A DNA stretch of 64,000 nt from an uncultured archaeon (GTDB lineage Archaea; Asgardarchaeota; Thorarchaeia; Thorarchaeales; Thorarchaeaceae): assembly GCA_964558645.1 (NCBI GenBank), contig CAZLEV010000002.1:176364-240363 (forward strand). The letters are read 5' to 3'. The position numbers and the translations under genes are program-made. This document shows, one piece after another, positions 3,216-63,136 of this stretch; positions within the stretch are counted from its first letter, which is position 1, and every line of letters starts with the position of its first letter. Under the pieces are notes generated by a model. The model ran no database searches and was not told the DNA's origin. It saw only the letters and a list, made by a program, of their open reading frames with translations.

Positions 3216-3248
3216 GACTATATCACCATTATAGTTTAGTTCGTAGAC

Positions 3249-4262: not shown

Positions 4263-4802
4263 ATGATTGAAGACCTAGAACTACTACTTGTGATTGCTGA
4301 GATCACCGGGGTCTTTGTGGGCTTTGGTGCCCTCATTGGCCTGAGCCGCCCTAGAGACGTGGATGCTTCGCAAGTAGTCCACGTTCGTGGCGTGGTCTCC
4401 ATCGGGCTCACGGTCTTTGTTGTCGCACTCCTTCCCGTTCTCCTGAACCGGTATGGGGTTGAGGGACATGCCCTCTGGTTCGTCTGTAGCCTCATCTATC
4501 TGGTGCTGAATTGGGGCAGTCTGATCCAGGGGTTCCGAGAGCCTGAGAGCCGAGCCGTGGCAACAACCCAGGCCCGAGCCCGCCCATTTCGTACCCTGTT
4601 CTTCTGGCTCTTGCTTGAGGTGCTTGTGCAGGGTCCGCTGTACCTCATTCTGTTGGGCCTGTCTCCAGACTTGGGGTCTGCGCTCTACACCACCGCGCTG
4701 CTCTTCAACCTGTTTGAGGGCGTGTTTATGCTGGCGCAGCTCGTCTATGGCCATGTCACGCCCTCAGACACCGACCATACGCCCCACGTCATCCATAGCT
4801 AG
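4263..4802 (+). CDS. Multi-pass membrane protein, unknown function (179 aa)
   Basis: Five or six hydrophobic helices and no recognisable motif. Confidence 0.5.
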   Translation: MIEDLELLLVIAEITGVFVGFGALIGLSRPRDVDASQVVHVRGVVSIGLTVFVVALLPVLLNRYGVEGHALWFVCSLIYLVLNWGSLIQGFREPESRAVATTQARARPFRTLFFWLLLEVLVQGPLYLILLGLSPDLGSALYTTALLFNLFEGVFMLAQLVYGHVTPSDTDHTPHVIHS

Positions 4803-5063
4803 GCCATGATGAGGAGAATAAGAGGCACGTTAGTCGGAAGACTACCAACTCGCCAATTGCCCCCATCTCCCCGGTTCTGGTCATACAACAATAGGGTGAC
4901 GAGTCTACCTAGAGTGCTCTGCCCTAGGTCTCATTCAGCCATGCTCCAAGTTTCCTATTTCCTTGTCACTCTTCATGCTCACAGATGATGCCTCCACAGC
5001 CTGGACGCTCCTGAGCAGTAATCCATAAGAGGTGCCTACGGAGTACTCTACAGCGAGAGTAGT

Positions 5064-5384
5064 ATGATGATGCAAGAAGGACAGACCATGTTTGCCTTCA
5101 ATATTCCGTCCATCCTGGCACTGGGATTCATCCTTGCTGTGGTCCTCATGGTGTTAGGCTATCGCGAGAGTCAGACTCCAAGTCGTGCCAATCTGCTCTT
5201 CAGAGCCGGCCTCACGTTTCTTGGTGTGATGATTGCACTCACACCGATGGTATGGTATGTGTACCTGGAGCTCTATCTGACTGGTTTCGTCATGTCATTG
5301 TCTGATATGGCCATCTTTGGATTGGGTATGTTTTCTGGAGGCACAGTCACAGGCGTCGGTGCCACATTCAGGTTGCGGAAGTGA
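5064..5384 (+). CDS. Small membrane protein, unknown function (106 aa)
   Basis: Three hydrophobic segments. Confidence 0.45.
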   Translation: MMMQEGQTMFAFNIPSILALGFILAVVLMVLGYRESQTPSRANLLFRAGLTFLGVMIALTPMVWYVYLELYLTGFVMSLSDMAIFGLGMFSGGTVTGVGATFRLRK

Positions 5385-11217: not shown

Positions 11218-11219
11218 GT

Positions 11220-11648
11220 GTGCAGGCGATAGAACATCTCACAAGCCGCACAGTGCTGAGGATATACTCGTTCCTGACGTCGTTGATATTGACCCTCAGT
11301 ATTCTTTTGTCTCAATTCGGTACCATGGGCAGTTTCCTGATCCAATCGACCGCGTCGGCAACAATCGTTGTTGGGACCCTTCTCATGCTATTCCAAATCC
11401 TGCTGGCCATTCAGCTAGCAGACAGAAATGACAATGTCGGATGGGTCCTCCATCTGTTCGCATATGTGACATTGTTAGTCATGATATTCTCATTTCTCTC
11501 AGTGGTCGGAGCCACGTTTCTCTCGTCCTTTTCCGTCGTCGGAGGGAATCTCATGGTCATTGCTGTGATTGGGTATACCATGCAGGCCAGCTTTGGAATA
11601 TGCCTTTCAGCAGTCTGCTATCACTTCCTACAGATTGAAGAGGCCTGA
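11220..11648 (+). CDS. Membrane protein, unknown function (142 aa)
   Basis: Four hydrophobic helices. Starts 3 nt after the hydrolase stop. Confidence 0.5.
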   Translation: MQAIEHLTSRTVLRIYSFLTSLILTLSILLSQFGTMGSFLIQSTASATIVVGTLLMLFQILLAIQLADRNDNVGWVLHLFAYVTLLVMIFSFLSVVGATFLSSFSVVGGNLMVIAVIGYTMQASFGICLSAVCYHFLQIEEA

Positions 11649-38180: not shown

Positions 38181-39788
38181 TCAAAGACTGAGTATCAGCA
38201 TTGACAAGATCAGACCTATCACTCCTAGAAACGCGAATACCCAGTAGTCAACCTCCTTTATTCCAAACCTGAATCGGCCCACCTCCAGTCGTGCTAGTTT
38301 CTCCTTGAGAGAGCGGGCCTTGCTCCGGATAGTCCCTATGATGCCCAGAGGCATGAACAACACGATGAAGACATATATAACACCCAGAGCAACGAGCCAC
38401 AGCTCGCCAGGTAGGTTCAAGACTTCGGTCACGAACTCGACAAGGTTCATCTCCGAATACACAACAACTCCGGCACCAAGCAGCGGACCCAGCAACGTGC
38501 CAAGTCCACCGATGATGGCATACAACATGGCGTTTATTGATACCTCAACCCCGAGAGCAGTCACTGGATCAATGGTTCTGATAAAGGGGGCATAGAGTCC
38601 CCCTGCAAGGCCTGCGATTGCACCGCTGATGACCACCACGACAATCTTGCAGTGGTAGCTGTTGTAGCCCAGCGCCTCAGCACGTTCCTCATTCTGAGCC
38701 ACAGCGACCACCATCCGGCCAAATGGTGAGGCAACAAGACGTCTCACAAAGAGGTAGGTGACTACGAGACAGGTCAGTACGAGGTAATACTGTATTGGAA
38801 TGGTGAAATAGAAAGTATCCGTCTGCTCAAGCCATATCGATATCATCTGAAGAATGTTGGTGCCGAAGGCAACAGACAGCCCTATGAGGGCAACTATCAC
38901 GATACTGAGAGGCAGGATAAGATCAGCGAGTCTGTTTGTGGCTCCTGTTTCTCCAGATTGTGACTGCATCTTCTCAACGTACTGAAGCGGGTCAGATATA
39001 GCTCTTTTACGTTCCATCAAGTACAGGAACACCATGCCAAGAAACGCCACCATCATCAATATCGGTCCAAAGATATTGGCTCCAAGAGCGAGCAGGAGTC
39101 CTACAAAGGCTATCATGGCAGGCGTGAAGAGAATCAGACTGATAGAGCCTCTTCGTTCCTTGATGTACAAGATGATTGTCCCAATGAAAGCAGCAAGAAC
39201 AGTGAATGCAAGAATGACAAAAAGCATGTAGAACGGCGCGTTTCTTAATAGGGCTGGCGAGGGCACCCTTAGTCCTGTTTCTCCCCCAGAGATATCAGGG
39301 GACACTGCAAAGAAGTTGTAGAGAAACATTGCAATCGCCAAGGCAATGAAAGCAAATGCTGTACCTTTCATACGACTTGTTGTCAACCCCATTATGAATC
39401 CCACACCGGCGCCGGCCAACATCGCAAGCAAGATAGTCAGGGGGTAGGGAACAACCGCTATGAGATTGAACGGAAACGGGAGAACAGCGGGGGTAAGTGT
39501 GAATGCCATGACATAGGCAGCCGTGCCGAAAAGGGCAACTTGACCGAAATTGAGAAGGGCAGCTCGTCCCAGTTGCAGGTCGAAGGACATCGCAAGAAGG
39601 CCGAATATCATTATCTTCGTCAAGAGGAAGAGCAGGGCTCTCATGGGAGATGTCCCTGCAGTTGTAGTCAGAGGGAGTAGATAGAAGAATGCAATGACGG
39701 CCAACAGCATTCTATTCCGCGATAGTATTGAGGGGATACTTCGGATCGTGTCCTTCACTTTTTTCTCTAGAATGCCTCCACTGCTCAT
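38181..39788 (-). CDS. livM: Branched-chain-amino-acid-type ABC permease, LivM family (extended, 535 aa)
   Basis: A multi-pass protein with a LivM-type core (LNFGQVALFGTAAY...). A 4-nt overlap with the livH-like gene. Confidence 0.8.
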   Translation of the reverse strand: MSSGGILEKKVKDTIRSIPSILSRNRMLLAVIAFFYLLPLTTTAGTSPMRALLFLLTKIMIFGLLAMSFDLQLGRAALLNFGQVALFGTAAYVMAFTLTPAVLPFPFNLIAVVPYPLTILLAMLAGAGVGFIMGLTTSRMKGTAFAFIALAIAMFLYNFFAVSPDISGGETGLRVPSPALLRNAPFYMLFVILAFTVLAAFIGTIILYIKERRGSISLILFTPAMIAFVGLLLALGANIFGPILMMVAFLGMVFLYLMERKRAISDPLQYVEKMQSQSGETGATNRLADLILPLSIVIVALIGLSVAFGTNILQMISIWLEQTDTFYFTIPIQYYLVLTCLVVTYLFVRRLVASPFGRMVVAVAQNEERAEALGYNSYHCKIVVVVISGAIAGLAGGLYAPFIRTIDPVTALGVEVSINAMLYAIIGGLGTLLGPLLGAGVVVYSEMNLVEFVTEVLNLPGELWLVALGVIYVFIVLFMPLGIIGTIRSKARSLKEKLARLEVGRFRFGIKEVDYWVFAFLGVIGLILSMLILSL

Positions 39789-40900
39789 GTCCCAGTCAGT
39801 CCTCCTGGTTTTACAATAAGAACAACTGCCATAATGATGAAAACGATGATGTTCTGAAGCACTGGCACGAAATAGGCGGTGAACTGCATCGAAAGACCCA
39901 CTATGAGTGCTCCAAAGAAAGTGCCTTCAAAGCGACCGTAATGAGCTCCTCCAACGACCACTATGACAAAAGCGAATATGAGATATGTGAGGCCGTGGCC
40001 GGTATTTGCCCCAATCCAAGGCACCAAAACTGCACCGGAGAACCCTGCAAGACCTGCACCGAGTATGAACACAAGAGTTAGCAGTCTCTTGATGTCAGTC
40101 CCAAGCAACTCGACCATCTCTGAGTCCTCTATTCCTGCCTGAATCTGAAGACCAATCCTCGTCTTTCGGAAGGCAACAAACATTGCACCTGCGACTGCCA
40201 GTCCGAGAAATATCAAGAAGACCCGGTAGATTTCAAACTTGAGGGCACCGCCGAAATCGATAATGCCACTGATGAAGAAATAATTGATCTGCGAACTGGG
40301 AGCAATGAAGTATGTTAGCACCGAGCTACCCCAGATGATCTCGCCAACCTGCATGATTATGAACATGAAACCAACTGTAAGTAGTATCTGGGCAATGGGA
40401 TTGCCGTAGAGCCTTCGGATTGTGAAATACTCAATCCCTCCACCTATGAGGGCCAGAACTGCGGTTGCTCCAAGAGCACCCACTATGAAGCATATGACTG
40501 AGAGAACAAACGGATTAGATGCAAAGGTTCCGTAGAATGGTAGAGTCGGGTCAAGCAGAAGAGCCTCGGTCCCCAGATAGATTTCATACCCCATGAAGCC
40601 ACCCAGCATGAAGAATGCACCGTGAGCGAAGTTGATCACATCACACAGACCGAATATCAAGAAGAAGCCGGACACAATCAAGAAGAGGAGCATACTGAGC
40701 GCAAGGCCATCGACCAATGACTTGCTGGCTCTCACGACGAACTCGTCCCATGAGTAATAGCTAATCCCGGCAATAACCAGTAGAACCCCTATCGCAAACG
40801 TCGTTAACACCATGGTAATCCTCAAGATAGTACGCGCCTGTGGGTTCCTTTCCAGATAGTCCTTCATTGAGAAAATCATCGACTGTATTTGTGACATCAC
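39785..40900 (-). CDS. livH: Branched-chain-amino-acid-type ABC permease, LivH family
   Basis: INFAHGAFFMLGGF... and the LivH family layout. Confidence 0.8.
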   Translation of the reverse strand: MMSQIQSMIFSMKDYLERNPQARTILRITMVLTTFAIGVLLVIAGISYYSWDEFVVRASKSLVDGLALSMLLFLIVSGFFLIFGLCDVINFAHGAFFMLGGFMGYEIYLGTEALLLDPTLPFYGTFASNPFVLSVICFIVGALGATAVLALIGGGIEYFTIRRLYGNPIAQILLTVGFMFIIMQVGEIIWGSSVLTYFIAPSSQINYFFISGIIDFGGALKFEIYRVFLIFLGLAVAGAMFVAFRKTRIGLQIQAGIEDSEMVELLGTDIKRLLTLVFILGAGLAGFSGAVLVPWIGANTGHGLTYLIFAFVIVVVGGAHYGRFEGTFFGALIVGLSMQFTAYFVPVLQNIIVFIIMAVVLIVKPGGLTGT

Positions 40901-41628
40901 TATATGCTAACCCCCAGATATTGTGAAACAAGTCGCTTATCGGTTACCAGCTCTCTCATGTTGTTTCCTTCATGAACTATCTTCCCGTTGTCGAAGATGT
41001 AGTAGTTGTCACCAAGCTTTGACACAGTTCTGAAATTCTGCTCCACCAAGAGGATAGTTGCAAACTCCTTCAGACGCTCAAGAGCTTCAATGAGGTTCTT
41101 TGCCAAGATGGGACTCAGACCCTCAGTTGGTTCGTCTATGAGTAACAAGTCATTGTCATTCATCAACGCGCGTGCCACGGCAAGCATCTGCTGTTGCCCC
41201 CCTGAGAGAGTCCCAGCTCTCTGCTTGAAGGCTCGTTTCATGTCAGGAAATAGGTCGAAGATGAACTCTAGTCGCTCCTCCATCTTTCCTCCGAGGCCAC
41301 CTTTCCGGACTGATACAATCAGGTTCTGTTCAACTGTCAAAGATCCGAATATCCTTCTGGTATCAGGAACATAGCCGATGCCTCTGCGGACTATTTCGTG
41401 GGGAGATAGTTTTGATATCTCTTCATCTTTGAAGAAGATCTTACCTTCTCGAGGGGGGTAGAGGCCAAGTATCGCTTTCATGGTTGTCGTCTTGCCGGAC
41501 CCATTACGCCCCAGTAATAGAGTGACTTCTCCCTTGGGTACAACGAGCGAAATACCTTGTAGAATATAGAACGACCCGATGTATACGTGAGCATCTTGTA
41601 TCTCAAGCAAGTTCTTCATCTGTACCAC
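40900..41628 (-). CDS. livF: ABC ATP-binding protein, LivF family
   Basis: GRNGSGKTT, LSGGQQQMLAVARAL and LLLIDEPTEGLSP. The start may be the ATG at 41619. Confidence 0.9.
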   Translation of the reverse strand: MVQMKNLLEIQDAHVYIGSFYILQGISLVVPKGEVTLLLGRNGSGKTTTMKAILGLYPPREGKIFFKDEEISKLSPHEIVRRGIGYVPDTRRIFGSLTVEQNLIVSVRKGGLGGKMEERLEFIFDLFPDMKRAFKQRAGTLSGGQQQMLAVARALMNDNDLLLIDEPTEGLSPILAKNLIEALERLKEFATILLVEQNFRTVSKLGDNYYIFDNGKIVHEGNNMRELVTDKRLVSQYLGVSI

Positions 41629-42487
41629 CTAGATAAGCAGTCAATACGCGTTCATCTTTCCGAATCTCTGCAGGAGGACCCTTCGCAATTATTCGTCCCT
41701 CTGAGAGAACAAAGATCTCCTCACTGAGTCTCATCACGATGTCCATCTTGTGCTCCACCACCAATAGTGTTAGTTTATCTCCATAGGACTCCTTCACTCG
41801 CAAGATGGCATCAATCACATCTGGTATCTCTTCAATGGCCATTCCAGCTGCTGGTTCGTCAAGCAGCAGGAGTTTTGGCTCTGTGGCAAGAGCCATTGCA
41901 ATCTCCAGCTTCCTCTGTTCGGCATGTGGAATCAGAGCTGCCGGGACATAGAGCCTCGAAGGATCTAATCCGACAATGGTTGCTATGTCAATCACCTTAT
42001 CGTGGAATTCGTTAAACGAGCCCGCCTTCTTCAGCATCCCCAGAAAATTCACTTTTGCTCCACTGCAGCCCTGAGCTGCCAACCTGATGTTTTCGAAGGT
42101 CGTCTGATAGGGAAAGATGTTGGTAATCTGATATGATCTTGATATGCCCTTCCGTGTACGTTGATTCATCGACAGACGAGTGATATCTTCGCCTTCGAAG
42201 TAGATTCTCCCAGATGAGGGCGGAAGTGCTCCTGTGACGAGATTGAAGATTGTGGTCTTTCCAGAACCGTTGGGACCAATGATTGCCTTTATTGAACCTC
42301 GTTCGATGTCAAGGCTGACATCTTTGACTGCAACCAGTCCGCCGAAGCTCTTGGTCAGCTCGCTCGTGCTAAGGATGAACTCGTTAGTTGAGGACAATAC
42401 GGTCTTCTCCTGAACCGATGTGACATAGCTGAAGACGGTTATTGTCGGCCTAGTTCCTTTCGGAGGATAATATACCTTTTGGAACAA
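41603..42487 (-). CDS. livG: ABC ATP-binding protein, LivG family
   Basis: GPNGSGKTT, the LivG-type insert, and LLLLDEPAAGM. The true start is probably downstream of the track start. Confidence 0.9.
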   Translation of the reverse strand: MFQKVYYPPKGTRPTITVFSYVTSVQEKTVLSSTNEFILSTSELTKSFGGLVAVKDVSLDIERGSIKAIIGPNGSGKTTIFNLVTGALPPSSGRIYFEGEDITRLSMNQRTRKGISRSYQITNIFPYQTTFENIRLAAQGCSGAKVNFLGMLKKAGSFNEFHDKVIDIATIVGLDPSRLYVPAALIPHAEQRKLEIAMALATEPKLLLLDEPAAGMAIEEIPDVIDAILRVKESYGDKLTLLVVEHKMDIVMRLSEEIFVLSEGRIIAKGPPAEIRKDERVLTAYLGGTDEELA

Positions 42488-51198: not shown

Positions 51199-51356
51199 TG
51201 CACCTGCCCACTTGACCTTGTTCGTAAAAGACTTGTCAATTGCCTCAATCGATTGCGCAATACAGACCTGTCTCTATGTTGTCCACAATATCCCTATAAA
51301 GATTCAAAACGATAAGCAATACAGCGCTGCCTTCCACAGAGAAGGAATGAAAGGTG

Positions 51357-52463
51357 ATGAGGAGAAGTCCCCGCAGGCAATTCAAAGTCTGCCTGATAGG
51401 CGACGGTTATGTGGGCAAGACGTCAATCAGGCAGGAGTATCTGGGGAAGGGGTTTAAGGCAAGCTACATCCCCACCCTCGGAGTCGATTTCGCTCAGAAG
51501 TCGTTGATGTACGATGACAAAGAAACGCAACTTGTGATATGGGATATCGCAGGGCAGCCCCTCTTCAAGAGCCTCCGCCAGAAGTACTATCAGGGCTGCA
51601 GCGGCATAATCCTCGTTTATTCTGTTGTGGACAGGAGCTCCTTTGACAACGCCTCAAAGTGGCTTGTTGAGGCCTACGGCTTCATGGGAGAGCTCCCACC
51701 CATAATAGTAGCGGCAAACAAGATAGATCTGCGATCAAACCGGCCAGAAGACGAGATAGTCACTTATGAAGAGGGGAAAGTCTTCGCGGAGAAGTTCAGT
51801 CAGAAACTGAATGCACCGGCCATTTTCATAGAAACGTCTGCACTGACAGGGGAGAACATCGAAGAGGCGTTTCAAGAACTGACAGAAATGATGGTTGAGA
51901 GAGTCGAGAGGCGCCTCCAAGGACTCAGAGAAGAATCGGCATCGACGATGCCAGAACAGGCCGCAGATACTCAAACCAGAGCAGTTGAATCGACAGAGAC
52001 CTCTGCGTCAGGAGATTCAATGGGTTCGACCACTGCAAATACCGCACCCTCTGAGGCGGATTTTGACCCCGTGACCTCACTCATGAGCGACTCACCTCAT
52101 CTACAGGAAGAGCAGATTGGAGAACATATGAGCAGACTGCTCCAGTTGCGTAGTGAACTGAAGAGTGCAGAGGAAGAAATGGCACACCTCACCTCTCAGT
52201 ATGAAACTAGGCTCTTGGAACTCAGAAACACCGTCCATGTCAAGAAGCTGATGTATGAGCACCTCCAGACACAGATCAAGGAAACACGACAGGAGTGGTC
52301 TGATGCCTATGAGGAGTATGTGAAAATAGAGGAACACAAGAACAGAGAGATAACACGACGGGGTAAGCAGATCGAGAGCATCCGAAAAGAAATAGAGCGT
52401 ATAGGAAGGACAATAAGAACGAGGGTCGGCGACCTCGATCTGAGAAAGGTTACTGGGTCATAG
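51357..52463 (+). CDS. Ras/Rab-like small GTPase with a ~190-aa C-terminal linker plus coiled-coil extension
   Basis: G1 GDGYVGKTS, switch I YIPTLGVDF, G3 WDIAGQ, G4 NKID, G5 ETSAL. These are followed by an S/T/A/E-rich linker and heptad-rich sequence (LLQLRSELKSAEEEMAHLTSQYETRLLELRN...). The ATG at 51357 is preceded by aaggtg. Confidence 0.9.
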   Translation: MRRSPRRQFKVCLIGDGYVGKTSIRQEYLGKGFKASYIPTLGVDFAQKSLMYDDKETQLVIWDIAGQPLFKSLRQKYYQGCSGIILVYSVVDRSSFDNASKWLVEAYGFMGELPPIIVAANKIDLRSNRPEDEIVTYEEGKVFAEKFSQKLNAPAIFIETSALTGENIEEAFQELTEMMVERVERRLQGLREESASTMPEQAADTQTRAVESTETSASGDSMGSTTANTAPSEADFDPVTSLMSDSPHLQEEQIGEHMSRLLQLRSELKSAEEEMAHLTSQYETRLLELRNTVHVKKLMYEHLQTQIKETRQEWSDAYEEYVKIEEHKNREITRRGKQIESIRKEIERIGRTIRTRVGDLDLRKVTGS

Positions 52464-54695: not shown

Positions 54696-56495
54696 TCAAT
54701 GCTGGAAATAGGGGCTATCTATATCACTCTGGTCTTCGAATCCAACATCATCCAGCATGGAACCCATGGGTTGCGCACCACATGTCCACGATAAGCTGAC
54801 AGTTCCATCTTCCTTGAAATCAAGTACTACATCCGGAAGGTCACCGAAGAGATTATGGTCGGCCTCCAGTACATCCTGATAGGCACCAGTCAAGCCAATC
54901 AGAAAATAGCCAACCTCGGCAGGGTCGGCCACAGGTATGCCGGTGATCACTCTGTTCCTCGAACTCGTTATGAATCGATTGTCCTTGCTTAGTATCGGCT
55001 CATCAGGAGTGTGCCTAACGACAAAGGGAGAGATCTCCCCGTCACTGTCACAGGTCATGTCCACGAGCCGGACCGTTGCTGCAGGGTGTTTGTTGTGTCC
55101 AGAGAGAGGAATGACAGGAAAGTGCTGCTGAACAAAGACATGGTCGAGACAGCTGTTGAAGACACTGAAATTACCTATCGAAATATAGTCCGGCTGCATG
55201 ATCCAAGCGTAGAGATTCGCAGGCACGTGAATCCCTTTTTGCACAATACGTTTTCTAAGGATTGTCTTCAACAGAGTGACGAGTGTCTCGCGTTCAAGTA
55301 ACTCGTCTAAGTCTCCCGTGGGCGTATCTGGTTCAATGATCTCCCGCCAGATTGCATAGATAGCATCTTCACTCTGTGCTGCCTCAATCTTCTCTCTCCA
55401 ACGAGCCAAGAGGGGATCTGACAAGTCAATCTCGGGCAGAAGACGGCGGGTCTCAATCACTTCCACAAGTATCATCGAACTCTGTGCAGTGATGGCTCTC
55501 CCCGCCTCTGTCATGATGTCCGGGTGATCTTCTGCACCCTTCCGCTCACAGACATCCTGGATGGCTCTTAGAACCGTATTGAAATATACTGAAATGGGGT
55601 CCTTCGTAAAGAGACTCTCGTAATCAACCGGGATACCACCACCCAAGTCTATGGTATCGAGCGCCCTGTAGCCCCTCTCCTTGAGAGAGAAGAATACTTC
55701 GGCCATATATTTTCCAAAATCGTGCATGTTTGTCTCAAGGTTGGTCAGCTGCGAGCCAATGTGAGCGTGGATTGTCCGAACATCGTCAAGGAGGCTGTTC
55801 TCTCTGAGGATATCTGTCACTTCGAATAAATCCTGAACTGAGAGTCCGAACTTTGAATACCTACCGCCTGAGTGATGCCAGTGGCCGCTGGACTTGACGT
55901 ATGGTTTGACTCTAAGGGCCAAATCGATATCACCGGGTTCGAAGAAATCAACCGCCAGATGCACTTCAGGAATGCTTTCGAGACAGACAAGTACATTGTG
56001 TCCAGCTTCAGATGCCTTCTTGGAGATGGTGAAGTAGTCTCTGTCTTTAACCCCGTTGCAGAAAATCAACCGATTCTTGTCTTCGCCGATAGCCCTCACG
56101 ACCAAGAGCATTTCAGTCTTCGAGCCTGCTTCCAAGCCGTATCTGATGTCTGAGTTCAAGATGGTCCTGATGCAATCTACCTGCTGGTTAACCTTCACTG
56201 GGTAGAGAGGTTTGTACTCACCCTTGTACCCCTCTCTCAATCTATAGGACTCGAAGGCGTTGTTTAGTCTTCGAATCTTCATTGTTATGAATTGAGGAAC
56301 ACGGAGGGTGAAGGTAGAGGTATACCCCACTTCGGAGGAGTACTTACGGCGGACACGTTCTATCAAGTCTTGAAAAGGGAAGAGCCGGTCATCGAACTTG
56401 AGGCAGAGATTCCCGTCGGAATTGATGTCGAGGAAATCCAAGTCACCACGGCCAACACCATGTATGAACTTGGCGTCCTCAACAGACCACATCAT
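54696..56495 (-). CDS. speA: Biosynthetic arginine decarboxylase (PLP-dependent, Orn/DAP/Arg decarboxylase family 2)
   Basis: SpeA-type N-terminus (W....A.F.HGV..GDL.FLDIN..G), YPVKVNQQ (PLP Lys), HIGSQ and GGG.PVDY; 599 aa. Confidence 0.85.
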   Translation of the reverse strand: MMWSVEDAKFIHGVGRGDLDFLDINSDGNLCLKFDDRLFPFQDLIERVRRKYSSEVGYTSTFTLRVPQFITMKIRRLNNAFESYRLREGYKGEYKPLYPVKVNQQVDCIRTILNSDIRYGLEAGSKTEMLLVVRAIGEDKNRLIFCNGVKDRDYFTISKKASEAGHNVLVCLESIPEVHLAVDFFEPGDIDLALRVKPYVKSSGHWHHSGGRYSKFGLSVQDLFEVTDILRENSLLDDVRTIHAHIGSQLTNLETNMHDFGKYMAEVFFSLKERGYRALDTIDLGGGIPVDYESLFTKDPISVYFNTVLRAIQDVCERKGAEDHPDIMTEAGRAITAQSSMILVEVIETRRLLPEIDLSDPLLARWREKIEAAQSEDAIYAIWREIIEPDTPTGDLDELLERETLVTLLKTILRKRIVQKGIHVPANLYAWIMQPDYISIGNFSVFNSCLDHVFVQQHFPVIPLSGHNKHPAATVRLVDMTCDSDGEISPFVVRHTPDEPILSKDNRFITSSRNRVITGIPVADPAEVGYFLIGLTGAYQDVLEADHNLFGDLPDVVLDFKEDGTVSLSWTCGAQPMGSMLDDVGFEDQSDIDSPYFQH

Positions 56496-57934
56496 TCCTC
56501 CTCCTCTGCTTCATCGATAAGAACATCCATCAGGCTGTCAAATGCCCGGGATAGGTCACCAATCTCGTCACCCCGAGATGTCTGTTTGACGTTGAGTTTC
56601 AGCTCTAACGGTTCAATAGAACTCTTGGTGAACTTCACCACTGCAGCCTTTCGTATTCGTTCCATTATCTCCTGCAATGGTCCTGTCACCGTGCCTGCAA
56701 CCCAATACCCAAGAATGCCTGAGATGATTATACCAACCATCCCCACATACATGATCTGCTCAATTGTGAGTCTTAGAGTGGATGTGATCCGATTCTGAAG
56801 CAATGGAATTGCCTCCAAGACCTCATCGAGGGGGACTATCAGCACACAGATGTATCCGCTCTTGCCGACAGGGGTATACACAAGGAGTCGTTCTTCTACT
56901 CCTCGCCGGTATTCAAGAGAGCCGTCTTCTCCTGAAGTGATTGCATCAATCTGGAGGAGTGTTAGCGAATCTGATTCGACTGCACTGAATTCGGGAAGCC
57001 CCTCTTCATATGCAGAATCGGGTACTTCAGGATGTGCAACTACCAGACCATCGCTTTGAATCAGAGTTGCGTAGCCATTCTCATACACATCTATGTCCAA
57101 GACGCGATTCTTGATGTCTTGGATTGTAATGTCTCCAGCGATGACACCTAGCATCTGATTGTTCTCATGGAACACAGCCTTACCGATCGATATCAGAAGC
57201 ACTTCGTCTATCGGATCATAATATGGTTCTACAAAGACGATGTCCCCATCTCCTGCTGCAATCTCAAGATACCAATCATCAAGAGTGGGATACCAGGGGT
57301 CCAGCTGCCTCTCTGCATCAGTTCCTCCTAGGATACTCCCGGGGTAGTTGATGAACATATCATTGTCTGCGAATGTGAAATAGAGCCATCTGAACTCCGG
57401 AACTCGATCTCGGATAGATCTGAAGATATTGTCCATGTTGGACACAAGGCCAAGGCGTTCTGAAGAGGCGCCTGCGTAGGTTGCCCAATTCGAGCTGTCA
57501 GACCCGGGAATGTACCAGCTGCTATACTCCCAAGAAACATTGATTCCATAGTCCGGGTCAAACTCTATGTCGGCAGGATGCGGACCTTCGGAGGGGTTTT
57601 CGAAGAAATAGTCGTAATAGGTCTCACGGGCGAAATAGGTATTCTCATCACTGAAGAGGCGTTCTATCTCTTCAGCCATGCTGATGACCATTCCTTCAGC
57701 AGTGGTCAGTTTTTGGTTTATCACATTTGATGTGGTGACGCCTGTGGCCAGCATATCATTGATTGCCTGCCCCTTGAGAGCATCTATGCTCCGAGAAGTC
57801 GTTGTGTCACCTATCAACACTCCAAACCCCATTGAGAAAGCAGTTGTCAGAGCAACAGATGCGGTTGTGATTACCAGAAAGGCCACCAGCATTGTTCTCT
57901 TGAAGCTAGTTCCGGTTGTTCTATTCTTTGCCAT
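56492..57934 (-). CDS. Membrane protein: TM - double-Cache-like extracytoplasmic domain - TM - HAMP, with no output domain (480 aa)
   Basis: The Cache core reads DDWYLEIAAG.GDIVFVEPYYDP....LLISIGKAV......MLGVIAGDITIQDI......ENGYATLIQSDGLVVAHP. The HAMP reads GPLQEI...RGDEIGDLSRAFDSL. It ends DEAEEEE. ATGA overlap with speA. Confidence 0.75.
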   Translation of the reverse strand: MAKNRTTGTSFKRTMLVAFLVITTASVALTTAFSMGFGVLIGDTTTSRSIDALKGQAINDMLATGVTTSNVINQKLTTAEGMVISMAEEIERLFSDENTYFARETYYDYFFENPSEGPHPADIEFDPDYGINVSWEYSSWYIPGSDSSNWATYAGASSERLGLVSNMDNIFRSIRDRVPEFRWLYFTFADNDMFINYPGSILGGTDAERQLDPWYPTLDDWYLEIAAGDGDIVFVEPYYDPIDEVLLISIGKAVFHENNQMLGVIAGDITIQDIKNRVLDIDVYENGYATLIQSDGLVVAHPEVPDSAYEEGLPEFSAVESDSLTLLQIDAITSGEDGSLEYRRGVEERLLVYTPVGKSGYICVLIVPLDEVLEAIPLLQNRITSTLRLTIEQIMYVGMVGIIISGILGYWVAGTVTGPLQEIMERIRKAAVVKFTKSSIEPLELKLNVKQTSRGDEIGDLSRAFDSLMDVLIDEAEEEE

Positions 57935-57948
57935 TTGTTTGCCTCCTC

Positions 57949-60693
57949 TTAGAAGTCCACCTGTGTTCCTCCCATCTCGAGTTGAGTTTGCATCTCGTCC
58001 TCGATGCCTTCGAATCTCTGAAGAATTCCTTCCTGTTCTTTGCCAGCCTCTGAAACCGGCAGGTACGTGGCACCTTCAATCCGCTTGCACATTCTCTCTA
58101 GGACCCGTTCGTGATCTGAACTGCACATGACTCCGATGATTCGCAGTTTTATATCACCCTCCAAACGATTGGCGAACCGAACGATAGAGTCTTCATTATG
58201 GGTCCTTGAAGAGTTGTCCTCGCCATCAGTGAGTGCGACAATCCACCGCTCAGCATTCTGTTCGTTGGCAATGTTCATGAGAGCCAGACCGAGTGCGTCA
58301 TAGAAAGCTGTGGCCCCGCCAAGGCGAAGCGCGCGGGCAATCTCCTTCCTTGCAGTAGAATAGTCTGGGCCCAATGGTGCAAGCCTGCGGAGTTCACTGA
58401 CAACAGTGTCGAATGCCAACACACCAACACTATCATCAGGTTGCGCCACAGCATCAACCATCCTCTGAGCACCTGCAACTGCCGCCTTTATTCTACCGCT
58501 CTGCCCCATGCTCCCCGATTTATCGATGACGAAGACGATGGCACGCCGCACTCGATGTCTCACAGTGGAACCCAGAATCTTCTCCGCCTGACGACGGATT
58601 TCATGACTCGGCTCACCCATATCTTCAAGAACATCAGCCAGAAGGGAGAGCGATCTGCCCGCAAGAGGCCACTCCTCATTCTCCTGTGACATGTTGGCAG
58701 CCTCAACAAGATCAGACCGGGCATCTTCGTACATTGCCATCTCGTAGTACATCATACCTCTGTGATAGTACACATAGGATTTTGACCGTTCATAGTATGT
58801 TCCTTCAAGAAGCTCAAGCGCCCGGTCAAACATCTCTCTGGCTTCATCAAACTCCTTCAGGGCCATCTTACAGACCCCGATGGTGTCGAATTGATTGGCC
58901 ATGCCTCGATTGTTTCCCAGTTTCTTGTTGATTTCCAATGCTTCCTCCAGATGGGTCAGGGCCTTGCGGTAGTTCTCCCTCTTTGGTGACATCTCGAGGG
59001 CGCCGAAGTTGTGCATGACATCGGCAATACGCACCTGAGCATCCTTTCTTTCTAGGTCAGTCTTTGCTTCTTTCAGCATCTGACGGGCTAGTCCTTCTGC
59101 AGATTGATACCTCGCCGATGCCTCCTGCAGTTGGCCTCTTTGTCTGTGAACATTTCCAATATTGAGGTCTGCAGCCTGGATGCCTTGAATCACCTTGAAA
59201 TCGACACAGAGTTGTCGAAGCCGAGTATACGTTTCTAGAGCAAGTGCCAAGTTTCCTCTGATGAACTCCTTGTTGCCAGCTCGCATCGAGTCTTGGAGAT
59301 TCTGAATTGCCTCCATGGTGATCTGCAGTTCCTTATACCGCAGGTCATGTATGGGAACCATTCCAGTCAAGTCGCCACGGCTCATATTGATCAAGACATC
59401 TGTGGCTTGTGCAAGTGGTTTGGCCATCTCTTCGCCTTTTCTGGCCGCATATTTCGACGAAACATAGATTGTGACTGCTACACAGCCAACAAGAATCCCG
59501 ATGATTATCAGGCTCTGAAAGCCAATCGCTGCGGAGAGAGCGAGTGCAGCTTCAATCACATCCGTTTCAGGAGTAACCGTACACAGAACCATACCGGTCG
59601 TAGGGACTCTCTCAAATGTTAGATACCATTTTCTGCCTTGCTTCGTATATTCAATCTGGCCACTACTGTTTGTCAGAATGTCAGGGAGAATAGAGGAGAA
59701 TGCATCAGCCTCTGAAGATGCGGAGCCACCAAACTCAGCATCATAGATATCTTGGCCTTCAGCCGTAAACGAGGGGTGTGCTATCAGGCCCCCGGCGGTT
59801 CCAAGAAGGAAAGCATACCCGTTCTCACTAATCTCCTGAGAGAGTACTTCGTTGTTAATTGTGTCAAGAGTCACGTCAGCGGAAACAACACCAATCAGCG
59901 TGTTGTTGTCGAATCGGATGGGCCGGCCCATGGACAATACAAGGCCAGTGGACGGATCACCATAGGGTTCTGTGACAGCAATGGAATCATCCAAGATATC
60001 GGCAGCGTTGAGATACCATTCCTCTGAATTGGGATCATAATCCTCTCCTTCTCCATACCAGTCCAAGAAGTATTCCAGATTGTCATAGGGGTAGTTCCTG
60101 AATAGATGTCGATTCGAGATTGAGAGGTCAAAGCCCATATACAGCCAGATATAGTCCGAACTCATTTCATGAAGCGACTGGAATATGTTGTCCATATTGG
60201 ACGATGTGTCCAAGACATAGCGCATATCATCGTCCCATTGGAATGGGTCGTCGTCAATGTAGTAGTCTCTAGGCATGTAGTAACAACTGACATCAAACGA
60301 TATGCTGTCCGATTCATACTCATCGATGGATTGCAGATTAGGGACTGTATAGCCCGTATTGGCGAGCTCAAGACTGGGATTCCAGAAGTAAGAGTGACGC
60401 GGGCTAGCATCATACCGTTCGTTGAATAGATTCTCGGCATAGTCCTCCATCATGTAGACACCATGGAAGTACTGCTCTATCCGCTCCTCAATGAAGGTGG
60501 CAGTATCAGCTGTTACCCTCTGCAGACTTCCCAGTTCCTCCTTAGTCAAAGCCTCTGCGGCTTCAGCCGTGTTCTGTTCTGACATGAAATACACGCTAGA
60601 AACCATGTATGAAGCAATCAGAAGCACGGAGATGATAACTGAAGCGCTAAGGCCTCTTGTAACTTTCTTTGTAATACTCCAGGTCTCAAACAT
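57949..60693 (-). CDS. Membrane protein: TM - double-Cache-like domain - TM - HAMP - TPR repeats - vWA (MIDAS) domain
   Basis: The Cache core is paralogous to 56492..57934 (EEWYLNAAD...VTEPYGDPSTGLVLSMGRPI...LIGVVSADVTLDTI...ENGYAFLLGTAGGLIAHP). The HAMP reads AKPLAQATDVLINMSRGDLTG. About 250 aa of TPR follows. The vWA reads IVFVIDKSGSMG...GGATAFYDAL...IVALTDGEDNS. The start is ATG 60693 (MFETWS...) or GTG 60714. Confidence 0.75.
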   Translation of the reverse strand: MFETWSITKKVTRGLSASVIISVLLIASYMVSSVYFMSEQNTAEAAEALTKEELGSLQRVTADTATFIEERIEQYFHGVYMMEDYAENLFNERYDASPRHSYFWNPSLELANTGYTVPNLQSIDEYESDSISFDVSCYYMPRDYYIDDDPFQWDDDMRYVLDTSSNMDNIFQSLHEMSSDYIWLYMGFDLSISNRHLFRNYPYDNLEYFLDWYGEGEDYDPNSEEWYLNAADILDDSIAVTEPYGDPSTGLVLSMGRPIRFDNNTLIGVVSADVTLDTINNEVLSQEISENGYAFLLGTAGGLIAHPSFTAEGQDIYDAEFGGSASSEADAFSSILPDILTNSSGQIEYTKQGRKWYLTFERVPTTGMVLCTVTPETDVIEAALALSAAIGFQSLIIIGILVGCVAVTIYVSSKYAARKGEEMAKPLAQATDVLINMSRGDLTGMVPIHDLRYKELQITMEAIQNLQDSMRAGNKEFIRGNLALALETYTRLRQLCVDFKVIQGIQAADLNIGNVHRQRGQLQEASARYQSAEGLARQMLKEAKTDLERKDAQVRIADVMHNFGALEMSPKRENYRKALTHLEEALEINKKLGNNRGMANQFDTIGVCKMALKEFDEAREMFDRALELLEGTYYERSKSYVYYHRGMMYYEMAMYEDARSDLVEAANMSQENEEWPLAGRSLSLLADVLEDMGEPSHEIRRQAEKILGSTVRHRVRRAIVFVIDKSGSMGQSGRIKAAVAGAQRMVDAVAQPDDSVGVLAFDTVVSELRRLAPLGPDYSTARKEIARALRLGGATAFYDALGLALMNIANEQNAERWIVALTDGEDNSSRTHNEDSIVRFANRLEGDIKLRIIGVMCSSDHERVLERMCKRIEGATYLPVSEAGKEQEGILQRFEGIEDEMQTQLEMGGTQVDF

Positions 60694-60697
60694 ATGT

Positions 60698-62158
60698 CTA
60701 ACTCCCTTGCTCACTCAACAATTTGATAATCTCATCAACTACTCTTTCAAGCTCTTCCTTTGACTCGAAAGCGAAGGATTTCGTGTCAATGAACTCGCCT
60801 GCAATCTGCCCTTTGCCACGCAGCAGAATAAGCGCTCTACGTATGGTCGCTGCGTCGAGCTCATGGTCTACATCAGGATCCTGTAGTGCGGCCTTCATAT
60901 CAAGGAGGTCGCCGAACTCGATCTTGTTACCCGAAACCACACTGGATAGTAATTTCCTTGCATCACGTTTTGACATCGACGGGGTGACCAAAGCGCCCCT
61001 CAAGCCAGTGAACACGAAAGTTCTACCATCGTCTTCAAAGTGACCAGATATCATCTCACGTCTAACCATCTCCTGCAGCTGACGGCGTAGGTTGTAGACA
61101 GCGGGACGGGGAAGTGATCGCCTGATGACTCTGTCAAGCTCCCTCAAAGTGATGCGGGGATTTAGTGATGTCACAGACAGTATGGTCTCACTGATGAATT
61201 CATCAATCTGCTGTGGCTGTAATGCATCCAGTATAGCCCCACAACTCGCACAGCTCGGCGTTTCTGGCGACACTGGGGCACCACAATGACCGCATCGAAT
61301 AGCCCTCCGATAGACAGTTTCCTTCGTAGAAGATATCTCCTCGATGACTCGACGAGTGAGTGAAGACATCGCATTGCCTTTGACACGATATATCTCTAGG
61401 GCAGGAAGCCGTGTTCCGATAGCCAAGTAAAGGATGTCACTACGTGGGTGCCGATCTGCGTCAATGGCAAATGGGCGCTCTGAAAGATCCAATTCCTGTA
61501 CCAGACCCCCACCCATATCCCAAATCCTCAGAGTACTCGACTTGTCCCCTGTGGCAAACAGTTTGTCGTTCTCCAAGTTCAGGACTGTACCTACTCGTAT
61601 CTTCGAAGGAACCGTGAACTGTTTCAACAAGTAGCCAGCTGCAGATAGGATGCTGATATTGCCGCTGCGCTCCATCACAACTATCTCATATTCCGGATCA
61701 TCCGTGATGTTCTCTAATCTGACAGAAACAACGGGTGACGGAAACGATCGTGTAAACAGCTTGATGTCATCGTTCCACAAGGACACGGTATTATCGCGCA
61801 TGGCAGCTGCAAACTCGTCCGCATAGTCGCCATCAATATCGGCCGCATCACAGGTTATGACCGGACTAGACTTTGCTATATGGTAGATAATCTGCCCTTT
61901 GTTGCCAATGACTATAACACAGTCCTTCGTCCCTGCAACAATGTCGTCATAACCGTCAGCATCGATATCACCGATGGCTACGGTTCTAACCTTGGAGGTC
62001 CATTTTCGAGAACTTGTTTCTTTCCCGGCAGGAGAGAATACTTTGAGTTTCTCGTCGTAGTCGATAGTGTATATCTCGACGCCCCTCTTTGTGGTTCTGA
62101 CAAAGATGTCGTATATCAGGGACTCTGTATTCCTTATTGATGTACGACTAATCTCCAT
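60698..62158 (-). CDS. Cytoplasmic FG-GAP-like beta-propeller + CxxC...CxxC zinc ribbon + two winged-helix-like C-terminal modules
   Basis: FG-GAP-like Ca-loop motifs IGDIDADGYDDIVAG and AADIDGDYADEF, and repeated strand patterns through about aa 290. Zinc ribbon RCGHCGAPVSPETPSCASCGAIL. Then ITLRELDRVIRR...LRRQLQEMVRREMISGHFEDDGRTFVF and IEFGDLLD...IRRALILLRGKGQIAGEFIDTKSFAF. The ATG at 62158 (MEISRTS) is favoured over the TTG at 62239 by the TATA box spacing. Confidence 0.6.
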   Translation of the reverse strand: MEISRTSIRNTESLIYDIFVRTTKRGVEIYTIDYDEKLKVFSPAGKETSSRKWTSKVRTVAIGDIDADGYDDIVAGTKDCVIVIGNKGQIIYHIAKSSPVITCDAADIDGDYADEFAAAMRDNTVSLWNDDIKLFTRSFPSPVVSVRLENITDDPEYEIVVMERSGNISILSAAGYLLKQFTVPSKIRVGTVLNLENDKLFATGDKSSTLRIWDMGGGLVQELDLSERPFAIDADRHPRSDILYLAIGTRLPALEIYRVKGNAMSSLTRRVIEEISSTKETVYRRAIRCGHCGAPVSPETPSCASCGAILDALQPQQIDEFISETILSVTSLNPRITLRELDRVIRRSLPRPAVYNLRRQLQEMVRREMISGHFEDDGRTFVFTGLRGALVTPSMSKRDARKLLSSVVSGNKIEFGDLLDMKAALQDPDVDHELDAATIRRALILLRGKGQIAGEFIDTKSFAFESKEELERVVDEIIKLLSEQGS

Positions 62159-62182
62159 TTTGATAGATTGTACATTTTGAGC

Positions 62183-62189
62183 ATATAAA
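62183..62189 (-). promoter_or_regulatory. TATA-like box (TTTATAT on the minus strand), 24 nt upstream of the ATG at 62158
   Basis: The minus strand reads gTTTATATgctcaaaatgtacaatctatcaaaATG. The spacing fits an archaeal leaderless or short-leader promoter. Confidence 0.35.
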
Positions 62190-62317
62190 CAATGACTAAG
62201 ATTTTCCAGTTTGAGAGCTGAAGATAGCTCCTGTATCAATGGATATATGATGAATCAGAGCAACGGAAGTTGAATCCGATCATTGTATGTCAGACTAGAG
62301 GACTCGTGAGGTTCAGA

Positions 62318-63136
62318 ATGAAAGAAATAGACTCGGGATCAATCAAGGCATTCCAAGAGAGGGTCATGGGATGGTGGAGCAGCAATGCTAGAGAGCTTCC
62401 CTGGAGGAAACACCCTACTCCCTATCATGTTCTCGTGTCAGAGATGATGTTGCAACAGACGCAAGTCAGTAGAGTGATCCCTAAATATACCGAGTTTCTG
62501 AAGAAGTTCCCCGATCTCAAGGCATTAGCAGAGGCGGATACCAAGCGCCTGCTTCAAGTCTGGAGCGGATTGGGGTATAATAGAAGAGCCTTATGGCTGA
62601 GAGATGCCGCAAGAGCAATAGTAGACAGGGGTGAGTTCCCCCGAAACGAGAAGGAACTCAGAAAGATGAAGGGCATTGGCCCCTACACCTCGCGGTCGAT
62701 TCTGATCTTCGCATTCAATGAGGACTTAGCCGCGATTGACACAAACATTCGCCGAATCCTGATTGCATCCGGATTTGCAGATGAATGCACATCTCGATTA
62801 GAACTACAAGAAGTCGCAGAACACCTACTACTCAGGGGTAGGGCTCGTGACTGGCACAATGCACTCATGGACTACGGGTCGGGGGTATTGACATCCTCAT
62901 CGACAGGTATCAGGCCAACCTCATACCAGAACAAGTTCGAAGGCTCATCACGGCAGCTCAGAGGGGACATCGTACGTATTCTCACGCATTGTGAAGAACT
63001 CTCTCTTGAGGATCTGGTTGCCCACCATGGCTGCAGCGATACGAATGCTGAACGAGTGAGATCCATTGTCAGGAGTTTGACGGAGGACGGCCTCGTTGAG
63101 CGAACCGACGCAAATCGTTTCAGAATTCCACGCTAA
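62318..63136 (+). CDS. MutY/Nth-like HhH-GPD DNA glycosylase lacking the 4Fe-4S cysteines, with a C-terminal winged-helix-like tail
   Basis: ELPWRK..TPYHVLVSEMMLQQTQVSRVIPKY..F...FP....LAEA....LL.VWSGLGYNRRA, HhH MKGIGPYTSR, and catalytic Asp in AIDTNIRRIL. The region aligned to the C-x6-C-x2-C-x5-C loop reads GVLTSSSTGIRPTSYQNKF and contains no Cys. The ATG at 62318 is preferred over the TTG at 62270. Confidence 0.7.
   Translation: MKEIDSGSIKAFQERVMGWWSSNARELPWRKHPTPYHVLVSEMMLQQTQVSRVIPKYTEFLKKFPDLKALAEADTKRLLQVWSGLGYNRRALWLRDAARAIVDRGEFPRNEKELRKMKGIGPYTSRSILIFAFNEDLAAIDTNIRRILIASGFADECTSRLELQEVAEHLLLRGRARDWHNALMDYGSGVLTSSSTGIRPTSYQNKFEGSSRQLRGDIVRILTHCEELSLEDLVAHHGCSDTNAERVRSIVRSLTEDGLVERTDANRFRIPR

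Follow-up and report, generated by a model that had tools for sequence, protein, structure and literature searches.

Eukaryotes have no closer known relatives than the Asgard archaea, whose environmental sensing is very little understood. The best-known proteins in which a VWA domain bearing a metal-ion-dependent adhesion site (MIDAS) is united with a dCache_1 domain are the eukaryotic alpha2delta and CACHD1. The integrin head is formed by an FG-GAP propeller of the alpha subunit and an I-like vWA/MIDAS domain of the beta subunit, and the MIDAS of Rea1 pairs with the propellers Rsa4 and Ytm1; a MIDAS is expected to accept an acidic side chain from its partner. Membrane-anchored proteins of the BatA/BatB type, which combine vWA and TPR regions, work with MoxR ATPases. 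Among sensors of amines, the chemoreceptors TlpQ and McpU bind agmatine, putrescine, cadaverine, spermidine and histamine at nM to µM affinity (PMC6234866). Here we describe a four-gene cluster in a stretch of 64,000 nucleotides (nt), hereafter the window, of contig CAZLEV010000002.1 (assembly GCA_964558645.1, positions 176,364 to 240,363 of the forward strand) from an uncultured archaeon of the Thorarchaeaceae. Encoded together in this cluster are a propeller protein with winged-helix (wH)-like units, two paralogous Cache proteins of unequal length and an arginine decarboxylase, SpeA.

The four-gene cluster is a deeply conserved, undescribed module of Asgard archaea. Regarding its role, we tentatively favour the reading, to which we would give slightly less than an even chance, that its products form a non-canonical transmembrane sensing complex which is coupled to agmatine synthesis and has protein capture as its output.

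Organization of the four-gene cluster

The four genes, with lengths in amino acids (aa), are the following:

60698-62239, minus strand: gene 1, propeller protein, 513 aa from TTG or 486 aa from ATG 62158

57949-60714, minus strand: gene 2, 'long' protein, 921 aa from GTG or 914 aa from ATG 60693

56492-57934, minus strand: gene 3, 'stub' of 480 aa, paralogous to the sensor half of gene 2

54696-56495, minus strand: gene 4, speA, 599 aa, SpeA-type biosynthetic arginine decarboxylase dependent on pyridoxal phosphate (PLP)

A previous reading of this DNA, made from the sequence only, had described these genes as four tightly packed head-to-tail open reading frames (ORFs), and both the ORF listing and inspection of the sequence agreed with that description, junctions included. 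The TAG stop codon of gene 1 is followed 4 nt on by ATG 60693, a 14-nt spacer with a GAGGAGG Shine-Dalgarno-like motif lies ahead of the stub ATG, and stub and speA overlap in an ATGA (56492-56495). We favoured ATG 60693 and ATG 62158 as start codons because the orthologues P0001 and P0121, which align with 94% identity at 100% coverage, are 914 and 486 aa long, respectively. Hydropathy scans predicted two transmembrane (TM) segments each in the long protein and the stub, and none in the propeller protein. The proposed paralogy of the two membrane proteins was borne out over the whole sensor half, where they are 27% identical along about 417 aa (E 4e-32).

Conservation of the cluster in Asgard archaea

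Thorarchaeota were scanned with one genome per species, which yielded 63 loci in which the four proteins were located by tblastn, and two Thor-type metagenome contigs were added. In every Thorarchaeota locus with enough contig, except one, the genes occur on one strand in the order propeller, long, stub, speA (about 65 loci), and this order is also kept in two contigs of a distant lineage related to Hodarchaeales. The check for recurrence of the gene order in related genomes, proposed with the sequence-only reading, came out positive. A 3.16-Mb Thorarchaeota chromosome and a metagenome-assembled genome (MAG) labelled Hermodarchaeota carry the same four genes in the same order as well. More than 120 full-length homologues of the 914-aa protein were found at 37-48% identity, nearly all of them in Candidatus Thorarchaeota MAGs; they carry no functional name, the database labels being 'TPR protein', 'cache domain-containing protein' and 'hypothetical'.

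The exception is L021, on the chromosome of Thorarchaeota bin8 (CP070658.1, about 10876-11244), the sole Thorarchaeota locus with an apparently broken cluster. There, the stub match is cut to 123 aa and its ORF runs on into unrelated sequence, and no speA was found within 8 kb downstream.

The two Hodarchaeales-like contigs, L068 and L069, come from the Joint Genome Institute (JGI) and hold a complete cluster. It consists of a propeller gene (P0147, 348 aa) followed by genes for proteins of 919 aa (dCache, HAMP-like, TPR and vWA), 518 aa (dCache and HAMP) and 649 aa (Orn_Arg_deC_N). These proteins are only 22-35% identical to those of the window, and their long protein and stub are nearest to Hodarchaeales homologues (43-44%). 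On L066, a contig of a Hodarchaeales MAG, a stub gene comes after the long homologue (P0277), and after the stub stands, in convergent orientation, a gene for a 369-aa propeller protein with a wH; L070 has the same long-stub pair and ends just after the stub. Both sensors and the propeller-wH protein thus stand together in three of the four arrangements, the contig of the fourth (L070) being the one that ends. The linkage of speA to the sensors is old, being common to two lineages at about 30% identity.

Could the four genes be functionally unrelated neighbours with no common mechanism? The flanks do vary, with an HDAC-like gene or an HhH-GPD glycosylase gene upstream, for instance. Order and strand, however, are invariant in about 65 loci despite these changing flanks, a second lineage has the cluster although its proteins are only 30-35% identical, and three of the four genes stay together in the rearranged locus. 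We regard chance neighbourhood as very improbable.

Word-indexed searches with the propeller and with the cytoplasmic half of the long protein returned few matches, because the propeller diverges fast and the cytoplasmic half is swamped by TPR words. The relatives beyond Thorarchaeota were obtained from an exhaustive profile search and gene-context look-ups. In the full-text literature on Asgard or Thorarchaeota sensing and on polyamine enzymes, we found no description of the cluster; the sequence-only reading had likewise known of no described system that combines Cache-HAMP-TPR-vWA with a propeller partner and a polyamine enzyme, and our literature search yielded none.

Promoter and transcription signals

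The promoter-like element of the cluster is the following:

62183-62189, minus strand: TATA-like box TTTATAT, 24 nt upstream of ATG 62158

This is exactly the distance that had been given for it (box at 62189-62183), and the element is likely the promoter of the whole cluster; from its placement, the first gene would be leaderless or nearly so. Within 100 nt upstream of the gene 1 orthologue, a (C/T)TTATATG element is present in 42 of 55 loci. TATA-like hexamers occurred in 3 of 62, 0 of 57 and 0 of 47 of the three internal spacers, respectively, whose median lengths across loci are 47, 14 and 16 nt and which contain GGAGG-like or other Shine-Dalgarno-like motifs before the internal genes. Because the conserved TATA element stands only before gene 1 and Shine-Dalgarno-like motifs precede the internal genes, the pattern fits one promoter and a polycistronic mRNA for the four genes, although promoters within coding sequence may also exist. 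A scan for bacterial sigma-70 promoters and terminators gave 7 promoter-like sites against 9.5 expected, and is uninformative, a bacterial model having been applied to an archaeal host.

The Cache sensor domains and their candidate ligand

The sensor of the long protein is located as follows:

59560-60576, minus strand: dCache module of gene 2, about aa 40-378, extracytoplasmic, Pfam dCache_1 6.9e-19

Both membrane proteins scored well above the dCache_1 (PF02743) cutoff of 45 bits, with 68.8 bits for the long protein and 64.9 bits (E 1e-17) for the stub, and TM segments flank the domain. Since Lys and Arg lie before TM1 and after TM2, by the positive-inside rule the Cache domains should face outward and the HAMP, TPR and vWA parts should be cytoplasmic. 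The best relatives of solved structure are the sensor domains of the Pseudomonas chemoreceptors PctC (7e-11), PctA (1e-9) and PctB, which respond to amino acids or GABA.

Pocket residues were mapped with the printed alignment to PctA and the published PctA numbering of the amino-acid (AA) motif, which we take to be Y121, R126 and W128 for carboxylate binding and Y129, Y144 and D173 for amine binding. The long protein has Y219, E224, W226, Y227, Y244, D246 and D273 in its pocket, with these equivalences:

PctA Y121: Y219 of the window long protein

PctA R126: E224 of the window long protein

PctA W128: W226 of the window long protein

PctA Y129: Y227 of the window long protein

PctA Y144: Y244 of the window long protein

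PctA D173: D273 of the window long protein

Y219, W226, Y227, D246 and D273 occur without exception in the 114 long homologues compared, and Y244 in 112 of them. The AA motif itself (dCache_1AA) is absent, the carboxylate-binding R126 being replaced in the long homologues by Glu in 104 (Gln in 9, Leu in 1) and in stub orthologues by Glu or Asp in 45 of 49, where the rest of the pocket pattern is conserved. Both Cache proteins of L068 have Asp at this position.

The AA motif of PctA is discussed in PMC10589655 together with the amine motif dCache_1AM of PctD, PacA and McpX type, which includes an upstream insertion with a pair of the R103/D133 type and, among archaeal phyla, is reported from Halobacteriota only. 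The AM positions that are in common with the AA motif, namely the aromatic pair and the final Asp, are present in the window sensors; only these were compared. In TlpQ and McpU the pocket is strongly negative and the primary amine is held by Tyr208, Asp210 and Asp239 (PMC6234866). The PY-x-D...D spacing of this triad, compared by way of the published description, is invariant in the long homologues.

From these residues we infer a cationic primary amine as the probable ligand, the foremost candidates being agmatine, putrescine and other di- or polyamines, and not an amino acid, because Glu or Asp replaces the carboxylate-binding Arg while the amine-binding Tyr and Asp residues are kept. The sequence-only reading had named both amino acids and polyamines; the pocket favours amines, and the replacement of R126 by Glu or Asp argues against amino acids.

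HAMP and HAMP-like segments, TPR/vWA arm and stub tail

Beyond its sensor, gene 2 encodes the following segments:

59269-59424, minus strand: HAMP-like segment, about aa 424-475

58594-59256, minus strand: TPR region, about aa 480-700, Pfam TPR_12 1.7e-15, also TPR_1 and TPR_2

58054-58545, minus strand: vWA domain, about aa 717-880, Pfam VWA_2 5.8e-13 and VWA 1.2e-10

The long protein is thus ordered TM1, dCache_1, TM2, HAMP-like linker, about 220 aa of TPR, vWA and a conserved C-terminus ending ...VD(Y/F). Its highest conservation (0.8-0.9) is found at aa 426-525, just past TM2 and over the first TPR. This region shows a HAMP-like pattern, P-x-x-x-L...GDL..., followed by a second amphipathic segment (AS2) of YEEVG... 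type. A HAMP domain had been proposed in both membrane proteins. Against a Pfam HAMP (PF00672) gathering score of 25 bits, the stub of the window falls just short with 24.4 bits, while its L068 orthologue passes with 27.9 bits; the AS2 signature DEIGELARAF is conserved among stubs. For the long protein, the match was sub-threshold both in the window (E 0.12) and in the L068 orthologue (19.6 bits, E 0.0011, profile positions 2-52 of 53), and hhalign of its post-TM2 segment with the stub HAMP aligned AS2 only (17 columns, E 0.037). The stub family thus effectively has the HAMP feature, while the segment of the long protein is best called HAMP-like.

As previously described, the cytoplasmic arm consists of TPR repeats and a vWA domain with an intact MIDAS. 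A TPR_MalT match covers aa 480-673, and VWA_2 (49.8 bits) and VWA (42.3 bits) are each over cutoff. The five residues of the predicted MIDAS, D724-x-S726-G-S728, T795 and D823, are invariant in the 114 homologues, and none of them is lost in the Hodarchaeales or L068 orthologues. Profile searches gave only TPR and vWA at the places where they had been called, in line with the earlier statement that no conventional output is present: no histidine kinase (HK), methyl-accepting chemotaxis protein (MCP), GGDEF/EAL, cyclase, Ser/Thr-kinase or phosphatase domain was found with Pfam and NCBIfam at E <= 0.1. The NCBIfam MCP and HK models matched only over the TM/HAMP region, with 15-18 bits against cutoffs of 700-900.

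We also considered membership in a defence system, which was rejected: PADLOC found no defence-system match among the four proteins, giving merely a generic TPR match of 27 bits and a noise match of 13 bits.

The stub is ordered TM1, dCache_1, TM2, HAMP and an acidic tail (..DEAEEEE) at which it stops. The end right after the HAMP, already recognized in the sequence-only reading, is conserved: all complete Thor stubs among those listed terminate in 'DDEIGELARAFQGMLDSI' plus 3-6 acidic residues, with a median net charge of -3 over the last 8 aa, and the L068 stub has an acidic end (..DDEEDEDF) after a longer linker. As a hypothesis only, the tail could be an internal ligand of the arm of the long protein, because TPR grooves and MIDAS sites typically bind acidic peptides.

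Every complete Thor-type sequence tallied has (V/T/D/L/I)-D-(Y/F)-COOH as the end of the long protein (window 57949-57990), the L068 protein ends in ..IDDY, and conservation across the final 14 aa is 0.88. This pattern suggests that the C-terminus may be a docking peptide.

The propeller/winged-helix protein

In the soluble, cytosolic protein encoded by gene 1, a seven-bladed beta-propeller of FG-GAP type is followed by a Cys4 zinc ribbon, a tandem pair of wH-like units and a C-terminal helix:

61373-62119, minus strand: beta-propeller, about aa 14-262, with DxDxDG-like FG-GAP loops

60767-61300, minus strand: zinc ribbon, aa 287-310 (CxxC...CxxC), and two wH-like units, aa 315-386 and 397-464

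Pfam matches were to FG-GAP_3, FG-GAP, BBS2_Mid (29.8 bits, cutoff 27) and zinc-ribbon families (Zn_ribbon_3 and Zn_Ribbon_1 at about 1e-4, with four invariant Cys), and the family alignment has invariant IGD-D-D..D and DIDGD motifs. An AlphaFold2 model built on a shallow alignment (m69c94a618654) was a seven-bladed propeller with a predicted local distance difference test score (pLDDT) of 64 overall and 70-90 in blades 3-7; Foldseek against the PDB gave generic seven-blade matches at E of about 1e-11 (WDR5, G-beta, BBS1N, COPI beta'). The C-terminal 204 aa, modelled separately (mba3c2e633545; pLDDT 78, predicted template modelling score 0.72), formed a zinc ribbon, two H-S-H-H-S-S units and a terminal helix.

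A specific kinship with the BBSome or intraflagellar transport (IFT) proteins was rejected, the BBS2_Mid and IFT122 signals being those of FG-GAP-like DxDxDG blades. A profile search collected 1330 proteins, mostly large FG-GAP/VCBS repeat proteins, Foldseek puts WDR5 and G-beta level with BBS1N, and gene 1 has no GAE or platform domains of BBSome propellers.

The propeller protein diverges fast, and its full-length architecture was found in just two 50%-identity clusters of the exhaustive profile search. All lineages retain the first wH, which is present even in the short versions of 348-369 aa; the zinc ribbon and the second wH are Thorarchaeota-specific additions.

A relative of 456 aa, P0132, was found on contig L067 (7122-10512; Logan DRR620298_223), where its neighbours are a divergent gene for an Arf/Ras GTPase on one side and an SMCR8_C (DENN/longin-type) gene on the other, and Cache and vWA genes are absent from the vicinity. 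With 23.2 bits, the second wH of P0132 exceeds the Pfam threshold for PCI (22 bits). The propeller-wH family may also work with regulators of GTPases.

The wH units bear on a rival account, in which the propeller-wH protein is a nucleic-acid-binding regulator that is held at the membrane or released by the TPR/vWA arm and controls the operon or other genes. Two wH-like units with a basic conserved helix region (RRSLPRPAVYNLRR), the retention of the first wH in all lineages and a sensor that has no enzymatic output would all suit it. However, no DNA-binding family was matched in profile searches, the second wH of P0132 resembles PCI, and Foldseek gave no significant match for the wH region (E >= 0.013), its weak matches being to scaffold-type wH of UFL1/DDRGK1, Odinarchaeota Vps25 and ESCRT-II, Stn1, cullin WHB and PCI subunits and not to regulators of MarR or ArsR type. 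We consider sequestration of a regulator unlikely. The propeller, zinc ribbon and wH fold proposed by the sequence-only reading were all recovered, but the wH part proved to be two tandem scaffold-like units and not a classic DNA-binding regulator. In the models the wH call holds at fold level, and a scaffold role appears at least as likely as DNA binding.

A second rival is a structural or trafficking scaffold, comparable to an integrin head or a coat-like assembly, in which the membrane-anchored TPR solenoid and vWA domain assemble with the FG-GAP propeller, the Cache domains serve surface attachment and speA is a passenger. FG-GAP propellers, vWA-MIDAS domains and TPR repeats are typical assembly modules, the P0132 gene lies beside Arf/Ras GTPase and SMCR8_C genes, and the window itself has a gene for a GTPase of the Ras family some 8 kb away. 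On the other hand, strong purifying selection acts in both paralogues on the residues of the pocket and on the HAMP signature, as it should in a functional sensor of small molecules, the 65 loci have no conserved GTPase gene beside the cluster and the propeller matches are generic. A mere scaffold is, in our judgement, improbable.

SpeA

The assignment of gene 4 as an arginine decarboxylase was upheld, all catalytic motifs aligning with those of E. coli SpeA: YPVKVNQ (with the Schiff-base Lys), HAHIGSQ, DLGGGIPVDYE, TEAGRAITA, DMTCDSDGEI and GAYQDVLEADHNLFGD. Pfam identified Orn_Arg_deC_N (1e-29), and the homologous region takes in the greater part of the SpeA structures from E. coli, C. jejuni and V. 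vulnificus (3nzq, 3nzp and 3n2o; 2e-63, for 3nzq, to 1.5e-53). The product is very likely an active arginine decarboxylase. It scored below both NCBIfam equivalog cutoffs (PRK05354, 350.6 vs 369; a second model, 323 vs 624), and arginine is its presumed substrate.

Synthase-receptor operons exist in bacteria, and by this parallel the cluster could encode an autocrine, quorum-like loop in which the product of SpeA, agmatine or a polyamine derived from it, is exported and sensed by the Cache pair, the TPR/vWA-propeller arm responding. That synthase and receptor are co-encoded across lineages only 30-35% identical, that the pockets look amine-type and that in L066, which has no speA, the stub pocket and tail differ too would be in keeping with such a loop, but the last correlation comes from one or two Hodarchaeales contigs only. 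Moreover, no exporter is encoded in the cluster, arginine decarboxylases of SpeA type are ordinary biosynthetic enzymes and polyamines are abundant housekeeping metabolites that make poor specific signals, and we find an autocrine loop a doubtful explanation.

Proposed mechanism

According to the sensing-complex reading that we favour, the long and stub Cache proteins would assemble as a heteromeric receptor that binds an extracellular cationic primary amine in its Cache pockets. The ligand signal would be relayed through the HAMP segments to the cytoplasmic side, where the TPR/vWA-MIDAS arm would change its binding state or the cargo that it holds. The most likely cargo would be the propeller-wH protein, other candidates being the acidic tail of the stub and SpeA. 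By way of SpeA, presumably co-transcribed, the availability of external amines would in most lineages be tied to arginine decarboxylation and polyamine homeostasis.

Several observations weigh against this reading. The association of speA with the sensors is not universal, because the Hodarchaeales-type contigs L066 and L070 have no adjacent speA; on L066 the region downstream of the stub is readable and no speA lies nearby. SpeA is cytoplasmic and thus separated by the membrane from the outward-facing Cache domains, to which it could be linked only indirectly. The ligand assignment depends on one substituted pocket position and on motif spacing, and in the L066 stub that position is occupied by Lys and the C-terminal end is non-acidic. 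The HAMP match of the long protein is sub-threshold, the propeller model is of moderate confidence and the wH assignment was made on weak Foldseek matches.

The L066 locus (2461-5117) brings together a Lys pocket and a non-acidic tail in the stub, a convergent propeller gene and the absence of speA. Pocket charge, tail charge and speA linkage may co-vary, in one or two contigs.

The autocrine, sequestration and scaffold alternatives differ mainly in what the output does. We think it unlikely, though worth stating, that the cluster represents a receptor class of Asgard archaea's own, in which a dCache/HAMP heteromer that senses agmatine or polyamines, with neither phosphotransfer nor second messenger, would use a TPR-vWA(MIDAS) arm to capture or release an FG-GAP propeller protein with PCI-like wH, much as the parts of an integrin head are arranged, and in most lineages in an autocrine loop with SpeA. 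Such a class would be a prokaryotic precedent for eukaryote-type assembly signalling, by its Cache plus VWA, propeller plus MIDAS and TPR plus PCI modules.

In the reading that we favour, the commonest extracellular sensor of prokaryotes would be joined to a protein-interaction output made of TPR, vWA/MIDAS, propeller and scaffold-type wH, and would also be tied to polyamine synthesis by the co-encoded SpeA. If true, Cache/HAMP receptors would have an output of a new kind, and archaeal polyamine metabolism a further level of regulation. The reading predicts an amine ligand that is determined by the replacement of one pocket Arg by Glu, a heteromer of long protein and stub, and capture of a defined partner that depends on the MIDAS or the TPR region.

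Neighbouring genes and other contents of the window

A gene like those of class-II histone deacetylases (HDAC) divergently adjoins the propeller gene in most of the loci L001-L065 (e.g. L001 5340-6422, minus strand). Neither the window and its clade nor L068 has such a gene; in the clade of the window an HhH-GPD glycosylase gene (window 62318-63136) takes its place. The divergent neighbour, HDAC-like or glycosylase, shares with the propeller gene an intergenic region that holds the conserved TATA box. A function of the HDAC-like protein as an acetylpolyamine amidohydrolase was unsupported, its best solved relatives being class II deacetylases of HDAC6, HDAH and AcuC type, and a second link to polyamines through this gene is also weakened by its absence from the window clade and L068.

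Other features of the window were the following:

51354-52463, plus strand: Ras/Arf-family GTPase (Ras 2e-42, Roc, Arf) fused to a C-terminal coiled coil of about 190 aa

44966-50704, plus strand: 1912-aa protein with NosD/right-handed beta-helix and Big_13 Ig-like regions, likely a giant surface protein

32203-42487, minus strand: Liv-type branched-chain amino-acid ABC transporter (Peripla_BP_6, two BPD_transp_2 permeases) and, in the same run, an AMP-binding (acyl-CoA synthetase-like) enzyme

21479-23968, minus strand: 829-aa protein with a sub-threshold Lamin Tail Domain match (32 vs 34.3 bits)

1761-3215, minus strand: full-length haem catalase (Catalase, 626 bits, and Catalase-rel)

Ras/Arf GTPases are typical 'eukaryotic signature' proteins of Asgard archaea; the adjacency of this one, about 8 kb from the cluster, is not conserved in other loci. 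The host lineage is usually called anaerobic, and a catalase is of note there. A tRNA scan of the window found none.

Comparison with known systems

With bacterial and plant SpeA, the window enzyme shares the catalytic Lys and His, GGG, E-x-GR, CDSDG and GAYQ..HNLFG, all of which are conserved; it differs in being divergent and the last gene of a sensor operon, a context for which we found no description. Bat proteins lack the Cache or HAMP sensor of the window long protein, and no gene for a MoxR AAA+ ATPase or a DUF58 protein was found at any examined locus.

CACHD1 (8s7c) was among the PDB sequence matches of the Cache region (E 1.6e-5). In alpha2delta and CACHD1 both domains are extracellular, the VWA being N-terminal to the Cache or interleaved with it, and HAMP and TPR are absent, whereas in the window protein the Cache would lie outside and the vWA inside, with a TM segment, a HAMP-like segment and TPR repeats between them; the likeness is one of domain families only. 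As in the integrin head and in Rea1 with its propellers, the window encodes a seven-bladed propeller and a MIDAS-bearing vWA on separate polypeptides, and by this analogy we hypothesise that they may be in contact. Unlike the integrin pair, they would be cytoplasmic, and there is no sequence kinship past the repeat and domain families.

The closest counterparts of the sensors are the Pseudomonas chemoreceptors PctA, PctB, PctC and TlpQ/McpU, which have the same topology of TM, dCache_1, TM and HAMP. The pocket scaffold of PctA type (Y, W-Y, PY-x-D, D) recurs in the window sensors, whose pockets also recall the acidic ones of the agmatine and polyamine sensors TlpQ and McpU (PMC6234866). In contrast to these chemoreceptors, the window sensors have neither an MCP domain nor chemotaxis genes, their output consists of TPR and vWA, and the receptor is encoded as two unequal paralogues in which Arg126 has become Glu or Asp. 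The Cache/HAMP kind of receptor is a known one, and what is new is its proposed protein-capture output together with a dedicated set of partners.

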